This document shows positions 356 to 51,035 of a DNA stretch of 64,000 nt, in pieces (positions within the stretch are counted from its first letter, which is position 1; each line of letters opens with the position of its first letter). Origin of the DNA: Escherichia phage EO1. The translations under genes and the position numbers were made by a program. The stretch lies in the sequence record OQ223305.1; one strand, given 5' to 3'. The notes under the pieces are model-generated. The model did not search any database. It had not been told where the DNA came from and was given only the letters and a program-made list of their open reading frames with translations.

Positions 356-981
356 TGCTCTATCAAATGCACAAGTGTAAAGATACATACAAATATAAAG
401 GTGCCCAGTGTTATATCATTAATCGTGAAAACGCGGGTCCGGGTCATTCACATCAATCACGGTTTGTATTCGTTAAAAACAATGAAATTATAGCAGTTGC
501 TAATTATATGCTTGTGACTAATGATGTTAATCCGGTGCCTTTTACATATTATAATCTAATGGATTTGGCGTACGATTATAATTGGTTTAATCATGATAAT
601 TTGGCTCATATTGAAGGCGTAGGATTTGACATCTCTTATTCTAGTTACTCGTTATGTCCTATAAGCAGAGCTCATAAAGAGCCTGAATATTTTTCATTTC
701 GTCGGCGTGTAGATTTTAAACACAGCACAGAGTATGTCGGTGGAATCTTTGTTAAAGATGATCGAATTACTCGCATTATTTATCCTTTGGGCTGTGGTCA
801 AAAAGATATTGATGTTGATTTAGACTTTACTGAAAACATCATTAATCATATTGCTTCTGTGTATTTTGATATTGATCACAAAATTGTAATATGTGGATAT
901 GAATTACCATCAGAAAAACAGTCTAAAGTAGATGTTTCTATTGATGACCAAATTTTTAATGCTTTTATGAATAGAGGTTAA
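355..981 (+). CDS. hypothetical protein, 208 aa (T4 61.2 position)
   Basis: ORF in track; TAATG start/stop overlap with sp; synteny only. Confidence 0.55.
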   Translation: MLYQMHKCKDTYKYKGAQCYIINRENAGPGHSHQSRFVFVKNNEIIAVANYMLVTNDVNPVPFTYYNLMDLAYDYNWFNHDNLAHIEGVGFDISYSSYSLCPISRAHKEPEYFSFRRRVDFKHSTEYVGGIFVKDDRITRIIYPLGCGQKDIDVDLDFTENIINHIASVYFDIDHKIVICGYELPSEKQSKVDVSIDDQIFNAFMNRG

Positions 982-1149: not shown

Positions 1150-2178
1150 ATGTCATCAATACCTTGGATTGATAATGAGTTTGCATACCGTGCATTGGCT
1201 CATTTACCTAAATTCGCACAAGTAAATAATAGTTCAACTTTTAAATTACGGTTTAGATGTCCTGTTTGTGGAGATTCAAAAACCGACCAAAATAAAGCCC
1301 GTGGATGGTATTATGGCGATAATAATGAAGGAAATATTCATTGTTATAATTGCAACTATCATGCACCAATCGGAATATATTTAAAGGAGTTTGAACCCGA
1401 TTTATATCGTGAGTATATCTTTGAAATAAGAAAAGAAAAAGGTAAAAGTCGTCCAGTAGAAAAACCTAAAGAACTTCCTAAACAACCTGAGAAGAAAATA
1501 ATTAAATCTCTTCCGTCATGTATTAGATTAGATAAACTGGCGGAAGACCATCCAATTATAAAATATGTAAAAGCTCGTTGTATTCCAAAGGATAAATGGA
1601 AATATCTTTGGTTTACAACCGAATGGCCTAAATTAGTTAATAGCATAGCACCGGGAACATACAAAAAGGAAATTTCTGAGCCTCGTCTTGTTATTCCAAT
1701 TTATAATGCTAATGGAAAAGCTGAGTCTTTTCAAGGACGTGCATTAAAGAAAGATGCTCCTCAAAAATATATCACCATTAAAGCTTATCCTGAGGCAACA
1801 AAAATTTACGGTGTTGAACGAGTTAAAGATGGCGATGTATATGTTCTAGAAGGACCTATAGATTCACTTTTTATTGAAAATGGTATAGCTATTACGGGTG
1901 GTCAATTAGACCTAGAAGTTGTTCCATTTAAAGATAGGCGTGTGTGGGTCTTAGATAATGAACCTCGTCATCCTGACACTATTAAGCGAATGACTAAATT
2001 AGTTGATGCAGGAGAAAGGGTTATGTTTTGGGATAAATCTCCCTGGAAATCAAAAGATGTTAATGATATGATTAGAAAGGAAGGTGCAACCCCTGAACAA
2101 ATTATGGAATATATGAAAAATAATATTGCCCAGGGATTGATGGCTAAAATGCGGCTATCTAAATATGCTAAGATTTAA
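1150..2178 (+). CDS. 61: DNA primase gp61
   Basis: 342 aa; zinc ribbon CPVCGDS...HCYNC; TOPRIM-like EGPIDSLF and VLDNEP; N-terminus MSSIPWIDNEFAYRALAHLPKF recognised as T4 gp61. Confidence 0.92.
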   Translation: MSSIPWIDNEFAYRALAHLPKFAQVNNSSTFKLRFRCPVCGDSKTDQNKARGWYYGDNNEGNIHCYNCNYHAPIGIYLKEFEPDLYREYIFEIRKEKGKSRPVEKPKELPKQPEKKIIKSLPSCIRLDKLAEDHPIIKYVKARCIPKDKWKYLWFTTEWPKLVNSIAPGTYKKEISEPRLVIPIYNANGKAESFQGRALKKDAPQKYITIKAYPEATKIYGVERVKDGDVYVLEGPIDSLFIENGIAITGGQLDLEVVPFKDRRVWVLDNEPRHPDTIKRMTKLVDAGERVMFWDKSPWKSKDVNDMIRKEGATPEQIMEYMKNNIAQGLMAKMRLSKYAKI

Positions 2179-2375
2179 ATTAACCCAACTAAAGCAAATG
2201 CTAAATCTACAAATGTATCAAGAGTAACTACTGGAATATTAATACCATGCGCAATTGCAACAGGTGATAGAATAAAGTTCCAGAGTAAAATTCCTACCAT
2301 AGCAGAAATAGTAAAAGCTATACGTTTTTTATTACCTTTTATGGCATTAACAAGTGCCATTAATTTTTGTACCAT
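2175..2375 (-). CDS. small hydrophobic protein, 66 aa, two predicted TM segments
   Basis: minus-strand ORF with perfect SD AAGGAGG 4 nt upstream of ATG; convergent with gene 61 stop. Confidence 0.45.
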   Translation of the reverse strand: MVQKLMALVNAIKGNKKRIAFTISAMVGILLWNFILSPVAIAHGINIPVVTLDTFVDLAFALVGLI

Positions 2376-2448
2376 ATGTCCTCCTTATTGCTTTATATAT
2401 TTATTGTATAATTAATCTACTAACCCATGAATTGAAAGGAAAAATAAC

Positions 2449-2967
2449 ATGCCACATTTCAACGAATGTAGTCAACTGATCGAAGGCGCTGATAAAGCTC
2501 AAAATGAATATTGGGATATTCTCGGTGATGAAAAAGACCCGCTGCAGGTAATGCTTGACATGCAGAAATCTCTGCAAATTCGTTTAGCTAAAGATAAACC
2601 TGAATATAATCGTCATCCTGATGACTTGGCTACTGCCGGTGAAGTTGTTGATTGGTTGCGTAATCAGAAAGATTATATTGACGATGAATTCCGTGAACTT
2701 CTGACTTCTCTTGGTGGTATGAGTAATGGTGAAAAAGACGCATCTGCTGTATGGAAACCTTGGAAGTCGCAGCATGGTGAGCGTCGTGAAACTCTGATTA
2801 CTGATTTGTCTCCGCAAGACCAGTTAGAAATTAAATTTGAAATGATTGATATTCTTCATTTCGTTCTGAATATGTTCCAGGGTCTTGGTCTTACAGCTGA
2901 AGAAATCTTTAAACTTTATTACCTGAAAAATGCTGAAAATTTCGCACGTCAGGACCGAGGTTATTAA
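2449..2967 (+). CDS. 56: dCTP pyrophosphatase (dCTPase) gp56, MazG-like
   Basis: 172 aa; MazG-like acidic motif DDEFRELL; C-terminus YYLKNAENFARQDRGY recognised as T4 gp56. Confidence 0.85.
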   Translation: MPHFNECSQLIEGADKAQNEYWDILGDEKDPLQVMLDMQKSLQIRLAKDKPEYNRHPDDLATAGEVVDWLRNQKDYIDDEFRELLTSLGGMSNGEKDASAVWKPWKSQHGERRETLITDLSPQDQLEIKFEMIDILHFVLNMFQGLGLTAEEIFKLYYLKNAENFARQDRGY

Positions 2968-3107
2968 TGTCTCGTTTAAATAAACGTCAACTCAAAAAGT
3001 TGAATAAGAAAAGGGCGAAAGCCCTTACTGCTTTATTACGTAATGAAATAACTAAAGAAATAGACCAAGAGATTATTGAACAACTCTGGAAAGCCGCTAA
3101 ATTGTAA
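2967..3107 (+). CDS. small basic hypothetical protein, 46 aa
   Basis: hand-translated MSRLNKRQLKKLNKKRAKAL...; TAATG overlap with gene 56 stop; below track cutoff. Confidence 0.35.
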   Translation: MSRLNKRQLKKLNKKRAKALTALLRNEITKEIDQEIIEQLWKAAKL

Positions 3108-16391: not shown

Positions 16392-18569
16392 ATGATTATC
16401 ACCACTGAAAAAGAAACAATTCTTGGTAATGGTTCTAAATCAAAAGCATTTAGCATCACAGCATCTCCTAAAGTATTTAAAATTCTGTCATCTGATTTGT
16501 ATACAAACAAAATTCGCGCAGTAGTCCGTGAATTGATTACCAACATGATTGATGCTCATGCACTTAATGGAAATCCTGAAAAATTTATCATACAAGTTCC
16601 TGGACGTTTAGATCCACGATTTGTTTGCCGAGATTTTGGTCCGGGTATGAGTGATTTTGATATTCAAGGTGATGATAATTCTCCTGGGTTGTATAATTCA
16701 TACTTCAGTTCATCTAAGGCTGAATCTAACGATTTCATTGGCGGATTTGGTTTAGGTTCTAAATCTCCGTTTAGTTATACTGATACGTTTAGTATTACTT
16801 CGTATCATAAAGGTGAAATTCGTGGTTATGTAGCTTACATGGATGGTGATGGTCCACAGATTAAACCTACATTCGTAAAAGAAATGGGTCCAGATGATAA
16901 AACTGGTATTGAAATCGTAGTTCCAGTTGAAGAAAAAGACTTTAGAAACTTTGCTTATGAAGTTTCTTATATCATGCGACCGTTCAAAGATTTGGCTATC
17001 ATTAATGGTCTTGACCGCGAAATTGATTATTTTCCGGATTTTGATGACTATTACGGTGTAAATCCAGAAAGATACTGGCCAGATCGCGGTGGATTATATG
17101 CTATCTATGGCGGTATTGTTTATCCTATCGATGGTGTTATTAGAGACCGTAACTGGCTAAGCATTCGCAATGAAGTGAATTACATTAAGTTTCCAATGGG
17201 TTCACTTGATATTGCTCCATCACGTGAAGCTCTTTCATTGGATGATCGCACTCGTAAAAATATTATTGAACGAGTTAAAGAGCTTAGTGAGAAAGCATTT
17301 AATGAAGATGTAAAACGATTTAAAGAATCTACATCTCCCCGTCACACATATCGTGAATTGATGAAGATGGGGTATTCTGCTCGAGATTATATGATTAGTA
17401 ATTCAGTCAAATTCACGACTAAAAATCTGTCATATAAAAAGATGCAGAGTATGTTTGAACCTGACAGTAAGTTATGTAATGCAGGCGTGGTGTATGAAGT
17501 AAATCTTGACCCTCGACTGAAGCGCATTAAGCAAAGTCATGAAACATCAGCCGTTGCGTCAAGTTATCGTCTGTTTGGTATTAATACAACAAAAATTAAT
17601 ATCGTTATTGATAATATTAAAAATCGTGTTAATATTGTCCGTGGATTAGCACATGCGTTAGATGATAGTGAATTTAATAACACTTTAAATATTCATCACA
17701 ATGAGCGTCTTCTGTTTATTAATCCGGAAGTAGAATCGCAGATTGATTTACTACCTGATATTATGGCAATGTTTGAAAGTGATGAAGTTAACATTCATTA
17801 TTTGTCAGAAATTGAAGCTTTAGTAAAAAGTTATATTCCAAAGGTAGTTAAAAGTAAAGCTCCTCGTCCTAAAGCTGCTACAGCATTTAAGTTTGAAATT
17901 AAAGACGGGCGCTGGGAAAAAGAGGAATTATTTACGCTCACATCAGAAGCAGATGAAATTACTGGTTATGTAGCGTATATGCATCGTTCTGATATTTTCT
18001 CTATGGATGGTACTACATCACTTTGTCATCCATCTATGAATATTTTGATTCGTATGGCTAATCTTATTGGCATTAATGAATTTTATGTTATTCGTCCGCT
18101 TTTACAGAAAAAGGTAAAAGAACTCGGTCAGTGCCAATGTATTTTTGAAGCTTTACGTGATTTATATGTAGATGCTTTTGATGATGTAGATTATGATAAG
18201 TACGTAGGTTATTCAAGTTCAGCTCAACGATATATTGATAAAATTATCAAGTATCCTGAACTAGATTTTATGATGAAGTACTTCAGTACAGATGAAGTTT
18301 CTGAAGAATATACACGACTCGCTAATATAGTTAGTTCATTGCGTGGTGTATATTTTAATGGTGGAAAAGATACCATCGGTCATGACATCTGGACAGTAAC
18401 TAATCTTTTTGATGTATTATCAAATAATGCTTCAAAAAACAGTGATAAAATGGTTGCTGAGTTTACCAAGAAATTCCGTATTGTTTCCGACTTCATCGGA
18501 TATCGCAACTCTTTAAGTGATGATGAAGTTTCCCAAATCGCTAAAACTATGAAGGCCCTTGCGGCCTAA
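16392..18569 (+). CDS. rIIA: rIIA protein
   Basis: 725 aa; N-terminus [37 protein letters not shown] recognised as T4 rIIA. Confidence 0.92.
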
Positions 18570-18580
18570 TAAGGAAAATT

Positions 18581-19519
18581 ATGTACAATATTAAATGCCT
18601 GACCAAAAACGAACAAGCTGAAATTGTTAAACTGTATTCAAGCGGTAATTATACTCAGCAGGAATTGGCTGATTGGCAAGGTGTATCAGTTGATACAATC
18701 CGTCGTGTTTTGAAAAATGCTGAAGAAGCTAAACGCTCTAAAGTTACTATTAGCGGTGATATTACAGTTAAAGTTAATAGCGATGCAGTTATTGCTCCAG
18801 TTACTAAATCTGACATTATTTGGAATGCATCTAAAAAATTCATTTCGATTACTGTCGATGGTGTAACTTATAATGCAACACCTAATACTCATTCAAACTT
18901 TCAGGAAATTCTCAATCTGCTTGTAGCGGATAAGCTGGAAGAAGCGGCACAAAAAATTAATGTTCGTCGCGCTGTTGAAAAATATATTTCCGGCGATGTT
19001 CGAATTGAAGGTGGAAGCTTATTCTATCAAAATATTGAATTGCGGTCTGGTTTGGTTGATCGTATTCTTGATTCGATGGAAAAAGGCGAAAACTTTGAAT
19101 TTTATTTTCCGTTCTTGGAAAATCTGCTGGAAAACCCAAGCCAGAAAGCGGTATCTCGACTTTTTGATTTCTTGGTAGCAAACGATATTGAAATCACCGA
19201 AGATGGTTACTTCTATGCTTGGAAAGTAGTTCGTGACAACTACTTTGACTGTCACTCAAACACCTTTGATAACAGTCCGGGTAAAGTAGTTAAAATGCCG
19301 CGTACTCGTGTGAATGACGATGATACACAAACTTGTTCTCGTGGTCTGCATGTGTGTTCTAAATCTTATATTCGTCATTTTGGCAGTTCAACCAGCCGAG
19401 TTGTAAAAGTTAAAGTTCATCCTCGCGATGTAGTATCAATTCCGATTGATTACAACGACGCTAAAATGCGTACCTGCCAATACGAAGTAGTTGAAGACGT
19501 TACTGAACAATTTAAATAA
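18581..19519 (+). CDS. rIIB: rIIB protein
   Basis: 312 aa; immediately downstream of rIIA. Confidence 0.9.
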   Translation: MYNIKCLTKNEQAEIVKLYSSGNYTQQELADWQGVSVDTIRRVLKNAEEAKRSKVTISGDITVKVNSDAVIAPVTKSDIIWNASKKFISITVDGVTYNATPNTHSNFQEILNLLVADKLEEAAQKINVRRAVEKYISGDVRIEGGSLFYQNIELRSGLVDRILDSMEKGENFEFYFPFLENLLENPSQKAVSRLFDFLVANDIEITEDGYFYAWKVVRDNYFDCHSNTFDNSPGKVVKMPRTRVNDDDTQTCSRGLHVCSKSYIRHFGSSTSRVVKVKVHPRDVVSIPIDYNDAKMRTCQYEVVEDVTEQFK

Positions 19520-26605: not shown

Positions 26606-27262
26606 TTATTTAGCCCTTCCTAATATTCTGGCCGCCTGAGCACATATTGATTCAAGGCGGTCATTACTTATATGATCATTTCTATACCAGTACATAGTTA
26701 TCGTTCCAGCATAGATATTATCCAAATTAAAATATGGACAACTGTACATGTAGTTTATTTCGGGAGTAGGCTTTTTAGTTGGTAAAAAAGCAAATTTTGA
26801 GTTGGAATAATAATGACGTCCATTTAAATGAACTGTATATTCATCCATAGTTTTATCAACAGGATATCCTCCAAGTGATTTTTCACTTATTGTTGAAGGT
26901 AATTTTCCTTCATATGCTATAATATCAACAAAATAGTTTAAGTTTTTAGGGCGGAAAGAATACACCGCACTAAAGTCTGCCTCAGATGATATATGAACTA
27001 TCTGGAGTTGTTCCAGGGCGACAGATTCAAAGCGTGCATTTCTTTCCTTTTCAATAATTTCACTGTATGTTTCATACTTTGATTGCTTATAGTACTCAAA
27101 GAAACTATCTCCCCTATACCAAACAATCGCCATTATAAACAAAAGAATTACGACAGCTACCCGGGAAGCAAGAACATTCCCGGTAGCGTTATCTTTGAAC
27201 AAGCGATCTAGAACACCCAACAGAATATCAGAGGGCGAAAATGATATTCTAGGTACTGCCAT
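26606..27262 (-). CDS. t: holin T
   Basis: 218 aa; single N-terminal TM segment plus large periplasmic domain; adjacent to tail-fibre genes as in T4. Confidence 0.85.
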   Translation of the reverse strand: MAVPRISFSPSDILLGVLDRLFKDNATGNVLASRVAVVILLFIMAIVWYRGDSFFEYYKQSKYETYSEIIEKERNARFESVALEQLQIVHISSEADFSAVYSFRPKNLNYFVDIIAYEGKLPSTISEKSLGGYPVDKTMDEYTVHLNGRHYYSNSKFAFLPTKKPTPEINYMYSCPYFNLDNIYAGTITMYWYRNDHISNDRLESICAQAARILGRAK

Positions 27263-27280
27263 AGACCCTCCTTTTAAGGA

Positions 27281-27288
27281 TATTTATA
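27281..27288 (-). promoter_or_regulatory. T4 late promoter (TATAAATA) for t
   Basis: minus strand reads CATATAAATATCC, then AAGGAGG RBS and t start. Confidence 0.6.
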
Positions 27289-27307
27289 TGCTGAGAGGTA
27301 TTACCAT

Positions 27308-31194: not shown

Positions 31195-31851
31195 TTAATA
31201 ATAGCCGAAATCTTGAACAGAATCCTTAATAACAATTTGGTCAAATCGTGGAACATGCGAGGGTTGAGATGCAGGATTCTGTGAAAAAAGGTTTGGCGCA
31301 GTTAAATTTCCTGTCATAGTGTCTCCAGAGCGTAATACCCTAGAGTTTGCGTTTGCGGTAACAATATTTATTGCTCCATCAACATAATCTTTCCGCGTAA
31401 GGTCATAATTATTTACTGGTGATAACGAAGTTACACGGATTTGTGATGCTTCAATTACGCCCTTTGAACTAATATCTCCGTTTCGCGTGTTAATTACTAC
31501 AGTTCTACCTGCTGCCCCTTGTGATGATTTAAAGCCGATACCATACCATGAAACAATATCCATATTTGTAGTATCATATGTGGCATTATCACCAGGACCG
31601 GCAAAAATGCCGTTGTCACCTGACCCAGCACCAGGAACAGTCATTCCTTTATTAAAAATTACTTTATTTAAATAAGTACCACCATTAGCTTTAGAAACGA
31701 AATCGTTATCAGTTGCTTGTGGTTTATTATATTCTGAATATATTTTAAATGATTTATAGAGTACATCGTCACCGGCTGGATTCAATGGAAAATTTCCTTG
31801 ATGCCAAATGACAGAGCCTCCAGTTGTTGAACCTACTTTTAAATCAGCCAT
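31195..31851 (-). CDS. 36: long tail fibre hinge/distal connector gp36
   Basis: 218 aa; between 35 and 37. Confidence 0.8.
   Translation of the reverse strand: MADLKVGSTTGGSVIWHQGNFPLNPAGDDVLYKSFKIYSEYNKPQATDNDFVSKANGGTYLNKVIFNKGMTVPGAGSGDNGIFAGPGDNATYDTTNMDIVSWYGIGFKSSQGAAGRTVVINTRNGDISSKGVIEASQIRVTSLSPVNNYDLTRKDYVDGAINIVTANANSRVLRSGDTMTGNLTAPNLFSQNPASQPSHVPRFDQIVIKDSVQDFGYY

Positions 31852-49447: not shown

Positions 49448-51035
<1,588 letters not shown>

Follow-up and report, generated by a model that had tools for sequence, protein, structure and literature searches.

What is encoded by a 66-residue open reading frame (ORF) that runs against every early gene around it, and is it a gene at all? 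The ORF lies on the minus strand between genes 61 and 56 of Escherichia phage EO1 (sequence record OQ223305.1), within a stretch of 64,000 nucleotides that was analysed as a whole and is referred to here as the window. An initial annotation, made from the sequence letters, had described it as an antisense, two-segment membrane protein located where T4 carries dam, and had suggested a toxin, a superinfection-exclusion factor, or a membrane modulator. Here we provide comparative evidence indicating that the ORF is a genuine protein-coding gene of T-even-type phages that is under selection at the protein level and is probably expressed late in infection. As for its product, we consider it probable that this member of phrog_2024 is a late inner-membrane helical hairpin that acts by helix packing; at lower certainty, it may serve as an accessory modulator of the envelope or of lysis.

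Comparative evidence for a coding sequence

The selection analysis covered sixteen distinct coding sequences from Tequatro-, Mosig-, and Gaprivervirus. Within Tequatrovirus, omega lies between 0 and 0.2—synonymous and non-synonymous changes number, for example, 6 versus 0 and 10 versus 4—and between genera the synonymous (pS) and non-synonymous (pN) differences amount to 0.56–0.80 and 0.30–0.39, respectively, with summary values of 0.67 and 0.34. The frame of the ORF has the lowest pN/pS of all six (0.21 within genera) and zero stops in the lineages read. Variable sites are distributed over codon positions 1, 2, and 3 as 7/2/12, 7/0/13, and 13/4/11, so that an excess at position 3 is clear in two of the three genera; the only insertions and deletions seen in the family are in-frame. 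The plus-strand frame that shares the wobble positions of the ORF, that has the sense of the early genes, and that runs on beyond the stop of gene 61, contains no start codon and is interrupted by stops in five lineages. This pattern of substitution indicates that the ORF is a genuine protein-coding gene under protein-level selection.

Two other sources of conservation were considered and rejected. Read-through of gene 61 was one: the frame beyond its stop is open in Tequatro- and Mosigvirus, but has stops in stretch L011 and in Gapriver-, Dhaka-, and Jiaodavirus. The other was a terminator on the plus strand; its hairpin is found in none of Mosig-, Gapriver-, Dhaka-, and Jiaodavirus.

Length and ribosome-binding site are each within what chance would give. 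Six further minus-strand ORFs of 65–101 residues lie antisense within genes in the first 6 kb of the window, and AAGGAGG is not enriched across the window, with 5 sites found and 4.4 expected. The ORF stands above chance because it occupies an otherwise non-coding gap, because its Shine-Dalgarno (SD) motif is accompanied by a promoter box, and because its protein is conserved.

The homology search that the initial annotation had called for found very broad conservation in related phages, the opposite of the lack of conservation that it had named as a refuting result. A query of type A matched 692 phage records, one of the JS98 type (type B) 122, and one of the Jiaodavirus type 165; these sets overlap, and the family total is several hundred to about 950 phage records in at least 10 Tevenvirinae genera. 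Among Tequatrovirus records, 502 have the ORF at at least 90% identity and 502 have the C-terminus of gp61 at at least 95%, which suggests that the gene is fixed in this genus, the two sets being matched by count and not record by record. Place and orientation are kept in Mosig-, Gapriver-, Dhaka-, Jiaoda-, Kanagawa-, Moon-, and Gelderlandvirus and in other T4-like contigs; the gene points towards 61, in most cases with the two stop codons overlapping, and away from 56 or any insert that takes the place next to it. It is absent in a Krischvirus, in which 61 and 56 are adjacent, and in Enterobacter phage SonariX.

The two subtypes can occur together. In the Gaprivervirus VR26 they form tandem paralogues on the same strand, type A at 2495–2692 and type B at 2701–2901 of stretch L013, 8 nucleotides apart, and the type B copy has its own SD. 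In DK-13, copy B (stretch L006, 1735–1875) is a pseudogene: codon 2 is TGA, part of its interior is deleted, and over 41 residues it shares 71% identity with JS98. In TH40 (stretch L007, about 1700–1811) copy B is mostly deleted. Copy A is intact in VR26, DK-13, and TH40, which provides a natural control.

The gene has been recorded before, in part. Sequence identity between the window region and Shigella phage Sf23, a Tequatrovirus, is 99.9%; there the ORF bears the name Sf23_gp153 and the label "hypothetical protein; predicted membrane protein". It is annotated also in AR1 (AR1_033) and fPS-90 (g032). Residues 2–66 match positions 1–65 of the 65-position profile phrog_2024 (unknown function) with an E-value of 1.4e-31, the orthologues from Dhaka-, Jiaoda-, Mosig-, and Gaprivervirus also match it, and Shfl2 gp35 is a further example; the ORF is a member of this family, already catalogued as a hypothetical protein. 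The identical protein is present on 259 contigs, every one labelled "hypothetical" or "uncharacterized". Scans against Pfam, NCBIfam, and PADLOC gave no match for the protein or for nine diverse family members, a PDB profile search of the protein returned only noise (E > 0.1), and Foldseek comparison of its AlphaFold2 (AF2) model with BFVD and PDB yielded nothing beyond family members and noise. In an exhaustive phmmer search and in a profile search of 5.8 billion proteins the relatives were all of 41–74 residues, and lay on T4-like contigs wherever contig information was present. Three large phmmer matches, P0032, P0036, and P0037, were discarded as spurious; they are repeat proteins with inflated multi-stretch scores. 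Most of the differences in family entry P0034 (61 residues) are of the kind that C-to-T changes produce (A>V, T>I, S>F/L, P>L, H>Y), and the entry looks like a bisulfite-converted or deaminated read assembly rather than a natural variant.

T4 itself carries the gene. Its dam (16846–17625) and gene 61 (17935–18963) are separated by an unannotated gap of 309 nucleotides, within which tblastn places a 98.5%-identical copy of the ORF (NC_000866, 17738–17938, +; stretch L004, 3239–3439, and also stretch L032). This copy has no feature in NC_000866.4 or AF158101.6, and the exact T4 protein is found only in raw-read assemblies, with no NCBI or UniProt accession; the gene is unannotated also in JS98, JS10, IME08, SP18, PEi20, and others. 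The proposed relation to dam is therefore half right: dam of T4 does lie between the ORF and gene 56, but T4 has the ORF as well. Since the window phage lacks dam and T4 has both, the ORF is no substitute for dam.

Late-promoter signals and their setting

On its own strand, the ORF is preceded in the window by AATAAATA, 11 nucleotides, AAGGAGG, 4 nucleotides, and ATG, with the box 22 nucleotides ahead of the ATG; a late transcript would start near 2392 and have a leader of about 17 nucleotides. The late box or a close variant (NATAAATA, TATAAATA, or ATTAAATA) is found 12–33 nucleotides before the ATG in all 14 upstream types: as AATAAATA in the window group, Mosigvirus, and JS98; as GATAAATA in T4 and stretches L012 and L022; as CATAAATA in Gaprivervirus, pKp20, and PEi20; as perfect TATAAATA in Klebsiella kv_tblp2, Enterobacter ZX14, and Kosakonia 305; and as ATTAAATA in Merlin, STP4-a, and SEA1. 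The box is kept although its flanks and the opposite-strand neighbour vary by lineage, and every lineage read retains a strong SD (AGGAG, GGAGG, or similar). A list of 50 T4 late promoters has 32 perfect ones and 9 with A at -13, the commonest variant (PMC2988020); among relatives of T4, conservation of T at -13 is poor (PMC1524935).

The core ATAAATA is depleted in the window, with 15 sites against 37 ± 6 expected, a shortage that would be consistent with avoidance of late promoters in stray places. Five of the other sites lie ahead of late genes, namely soc, holin t, and genes for tail fibres. Several ATAAATA sites have no obvious adjoining ORF start; the sites include 777–783 (-), 31365–31371 (-), and 50492–50498 (-). 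Upstream on the ORF strand no early promoter is evident, nor is there a strong sigma-70 site. These signals suggest that the gene is probably made late in infection; because the conserved upstream element is a late promoter, the gene would belong to the late programme though it is located in the early region.

Two further proposals about the box failed. That its first base is never T is refuted by the three lineages with perfect TATAAATA. That ATAAATA is part of the middle promoter on the opposite strand does not agree with its offset from the MotA box, which varies by genus, or with Kanagawa- and Moonvirus, whose intergenic space holds hardly more than box and SD.

The late signals share their DNA with signals of the plus strand. 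A MotA-type middle promoter for gene 56, with the box ATTGCTTTA and annotated as "predicted middle promoter" in fPS-90, occupies the same 26 nucleotides; its spacer contains the late box, and its MotA box the likely late start. With the late box inside that spacer, the two promoters are probably mutually exclusive in use. Within the ORF itself, a hairpin at 2341–2360 (-8.9 kcal/mol, z -2.3), labelled "terminator" in fPS-90, could together with its T-run terminate gene 61 transcripts; it is specific to Tequatrovirus among the genera compared (Mosig-, Gapriver-, Dhaka-, and Jiaodavirus lack it). On the minus strand no terminator-like site is found 3' of the ORF, between 2175 and 1, so a late transcript would continue antisense into gene 61. 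Table 1 gives the coordinates of these features.

Table 1. Positions in the window of the 66-residue ORF, its expression signals, and the features beside it.
Feature	Position	Strand	Details
Coding sequence of the 66-residue protein	2175..2375	minus	ATG start; stop codon 2175-2177; sequence MVQKLMALVNAIKGNKKRIAFTISAMVGILLWNFILSPVAIAHGINIPVVTLDTFVDLAFALVGLI
Shine-Dalgarno motif AAGGAGG	2380..2386	minus	4 nucleotides (ACAT) ahead of the ATG at 2375..2373
Late-promoter-like box AATAAATA	2398..2405	minus	T4 consensus TATAAATA at -13..-6
MotA-type middle promoter for gene 56	2387..2412	plus	Box ATTGCTTTA 2387-2395, 11-nucleotide spacer, TATAAT 2407-2412
Terminator-like hairpin ATGGCATT-AACA-AGTGCCAT with T-run	2341..2370	plus	3' of gene 61, within ORF codons 2-12
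Gene 61 (DNA primase)	1150..2178	plus	Neighbour, convergent with the ORF
Gene 56 (dCTPase)	2449..2967	plus	Neighbour, divergent from the ORF

Several statements of the initial annotation about this locus hold up. Among sp, 61.2, 61.1, 61, 56, and soc, all on the plus strand, the ORF is the sole one on the minus strand, as the ORF list and the strands of the neighbours confirm, and AAGGAGG does stand 4 nucleotides from the ATG on the minus-strand sequence. The word antisense, by contrast, applies to 4 nucleotides only—the stop codons of the ORF and gene 61 overlap in the palindrome TTTAAA (2175–2178), and the rest of the ORF lies in its own gap. An identical 4-nucleotide stop overlap is seen in T4 and in Mosig-, Dhaka-, Moon-, Kanagawa-, and Gelderlandvirus. 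Directly 3' of gene 56 is a lysine-rich ORF of 46 residues (2967–3107, +), its ATG overlapping the stop of 56; this is hypothetical gp151 in Sf23, in the slot where T4 has segF.

The slots flanking the small gene are an insertion hotspot; the window, at 2376–2448, has none of the inserts named below. A homing endonuclease lies between the gene and 56 in fPS-90, G50, FL08, and others (e.g., stretch L002, 2047–2697), and DK-13 has another between the gene and 61 (stretch L006, 1872–2621). T4 has dam at the hotspot (stretch L004, 2347–3126) and segF after 56 (L004, 1107–1781). A gene of about 94 residues stands between the small gene and 56 in Kanagawa- and Moonvirus, and likewise in a Klebsiella group whose genomes measure about 170 kb (stretches L026–L030, e.g., L029, 72–356; stretch L020, 1839–2123); it is labelled nucleoside triphosphate pyrophosphohydrolase in some records and hypothetical in others. 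In SonariX, where the small membrane gene is missing, an unannotated hypothetical ORF of 94 residues is directly 3' of gene 61.

Predicted membrane hairpin and competing functions

Hydropathy confirms two hydrophobic segments, in keeping with the two transmembrane segments (TMs) first proposed. With a 19-residue window, the Kyte-Doolittle profile peaks at 2.0 for residues 19–41 and at 1.86 for residues 47–66, the usual threshold being 1.6; the grand average of hydropathy (GRAVY) is 1.25. All five lysines and arginines are within residues 4–18 (K4, K13, K16, K17, R18), and the C-terminus (...FALVGLI) has no basic residue. Across 15 lineages W32, N33, P38, and G44 are invariant and A40, P48, and G64 nearly so, while position 53 is nearly always D or E. 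The AF2 model, built with 28 family sequences, has a predicted local distance difference test score (pLDDT) of 78 and helices at 2–12, 16–42, and 52–63. From the alignment, N33, A40, and G44 would lie on one helix face (i, i+7, i+11), with A40-x3-G44 as a small-xxx-small motif.

From these features we propose the following course of events. Once replication begins, gp55-RNA polymerase would read the variant T4 late promoter AATAAATA (2405–2398, minus), and the product would be an mRNA with a short leader (~17 nucleotides) and a consensus SD. Judging by hydropathy, charge distribution, and the AF2 model, the 66-residue protein would then insert in the inner membrane as a hairpin with its N-terminus inside: the basic N-terminal helix would be cytoplasmic, TM1 would span residues ~19–42, a periplasmic turn would run from H43 to P48, and a second hydrophobic helix with an acidic or polar stripe (D53, D57) would follow. 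The step of lowest certainty is that W32-N33 in the middle of TM1, with A40 and G44 on the same face, may make intramembrane helix-helix contacts with the protein itself or with a membrane partner. An accessory role in late envelope or lysis physiology would be the most likely function, at low certainty, and "membrane modulator", one of the original suggestions, is still the best general description of what is a real gene for a small hydrophobic protein.

Several observations weigh against this picture of a late hairpin. With only 12 residues in the second AF2 helix, the C-terminal segment may lie at the membrane interface instead of spanning the membrane; the late box is a one-mismatch variant in both the window and T4; and the functional part, namely helix packing and modulation of the envelope or lysis, is drawn from sequence anatomy. 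Our literature search found no study of this ORF, nor transcript, ribosome-profiling, or proteomic data on it. The T4 CRISPRi-ART screen relied on the NCBI annotation; because the ORF is missing from the T4 reference annotation, this and like annotation-based T4 screens did not target it.

Of the other functions that could be assigned to the protein, a holin- or pinholin-like late pore former (or an antiholin), with a part in lysis timing, fares best, though we judge it unlikely. A length of ~65 residues, two hydrophobic segments with internal polar residues (N33, and D27 in type B), and late-promoter signals with AAGGAGG 4 nucleotides from the ATG, as in holin gene t of the window, would suit such a protein; however, it matches no PHROG or Pfam holin family at E ≤ 10, its charge is N-terminal with no charged C-terminal tail, and its neighbours are a primase and a dCTPase, with no adjoining endolysin or spanin gene. 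The apparent dual start (M1..K4..M6) is not conserved outside Tequatrovirus. Lysis of T4 depends on t, which makes a second autonomous holin unlikely. A single UniProt entry (OE5505) bears the label "Holin"; this is probably automatic, and we found no evidence in support of it.

We regard as improbable the early or antisense-controlled toxin, or superinfection-exclusion factor, that the initial annotation put forward. The peptide is small and hydrophobic, and early and middle transcripts running from 61 to 56 would be fully antisense to the ORF mRNA if the weak hairpin at 2341–2360 leaks; but the ORF strand has no early-type or strong sigma-70 promoter upstream, and the conserved element there is the late box. 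The exclusion proteins Imm and Sp act early, and a late box would make the timing too late for exclusion of this classical type. PADLOC assigns 0 families to nine members, Pfam likewise 0, and PHROG offers no match of known function. In addition, a protein with two hydrophobic segments that is stably and universally conserved in lytic phages is unlike type I toxins. The notion of an antisense toxin in place of dam is largely wrong.

A reading that seems to us similarly improbable is that residues 1–42 are a long signal, either cleavable or releasable in the manner of a signal-arrest-release (SAR) sequence, and that the active part would be a C-terminal peptide of 24 residues in the periplasm or outer leaflet. 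The conserved P38-x-A40-x-[A/S/T]42, followed by x-G44, does resemble the c-region recognised by signal peptidase, with its (-3,-1) site; the N-terminus carries basic residues, and in several lineages G, A, S, and T abound in TM1. On the other hand, the hydrophobic stretch of ~24 residues is long for a cleaved signal peptide, many lineages have T at -1, a poor cleavage residue, and the AF2 helix is continuous over 16–42.

Very improbable, in our estimation, is a role of the RNA over the protein, in which the unterminated late transcript would extend antisense into gene 61 and help to shut off primase late. The missing minus-strand terminator between 2175 and 1 would allow this, and the convergent layout with overlapping stops is kept in most genera; yet the peptide itself is under constraint, as its invariant residues and the selection at the protein level show, and in DK-13 and stretch L022 another gene lies between the ORF and gene 61.

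Finally, that the ORF is not a gene but a chance frame in a regulatory spacer holding a terminator and promoters is effectively refuted by the comparative data: similar-length ORFs are indeed frequent on the minus strand and the region does contain a terminator-like hairpin and a middle promoter, but the frame is intact in hundreds of genomes from more than 10 genera, down to 20–30% identity and with invariant residues, it has the lowest pN/pS, the hairpin is not conserved outside Tequatrovirus, and a redundant paralogue decays while type A stays intact.

Returning to the late membrane hairpin, what is newly added here is protein-level selection with a fixed position in at least ten Tevenvirinae genera, the assignment to the late genes, the unannotated T4 copy, and the two subtypes that stand in tandem in some Gapriverviruses. 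A bolder proposal, which we put forward as a speculation that is rather unlikely to be right in full, is that T-even phages including T4 encode an unrecognised late inner-membrane hairpin (core WN...P.A...G...P, two subtypes, sometimes tandem) that takes part in regulating the envelope as infection ends. Through binding within the membrane it would, for example, modulate lysis inhibition, the triggering of holin T, or the energisation of the membrane. If so, the absence of the gene from the reference annotation would explain why it escaped decades of T4 genetics as well as recent genome-wide screens. Should the protein affect lysis timing or membrane integrity, it would be a new component of one of the best-studied lysis systems; should it have no such effect, it would be one more small accessory gene.

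Comparison with known systems

Type I toxins such as Hok, TisB, and Ldr are small hydrophobic peptides; the ORF product shares these traits, and opposite-strand transcription across the ORF is possible. It differs from them in its two hydrophobic segments, in having no dedicated antisense RNA gene that we could see, and in being universal in lytic phages. T4 Imm is a small inner-membrane protein for superinfection immunity that has two hydrophobic segments and is expressed early. Both proteins are small with two hydrophobic segments, but the signals of the ORF are late and there is no similarity between the two, phrog_2024 being the sole match of the ORF.

Class II holins and pinholins, for example S68 of phage 21 and gp17.5 of T7, have ~65–70 residues and two hydrophobic helices, of which the first is polar and weakly hydrophobic. 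The ORF resembles them in size, in its two predicted hydrophobic helices with a first one of that character, and presumably in late expression; it differs in lacking sequence or profile similarity, a basic C-terminal tail, and a lysis cassette. T4-type phages, moreover, already use holin T, which is unrelated to the ORF.

The closest parallels in expression signals are the T4 late genes t and soc, which like the ORF place a box near -10, then a short AT-rich leader and a strong SD, ahead of the ATG. In the window, holin gene t (218 residues, 26606–27300, minus) has the layout TATAAATA, 7 nucleotides, AAGGAGG, 4 nucleotides, and ATG, its SD being one of the five exact AAGGAGG sites. The putative promoter of the ORF departs from that of the T4 late genes in two respects: its box AATAAATA has A at -13, and it overlaps a middle promoter on the opposite strand.

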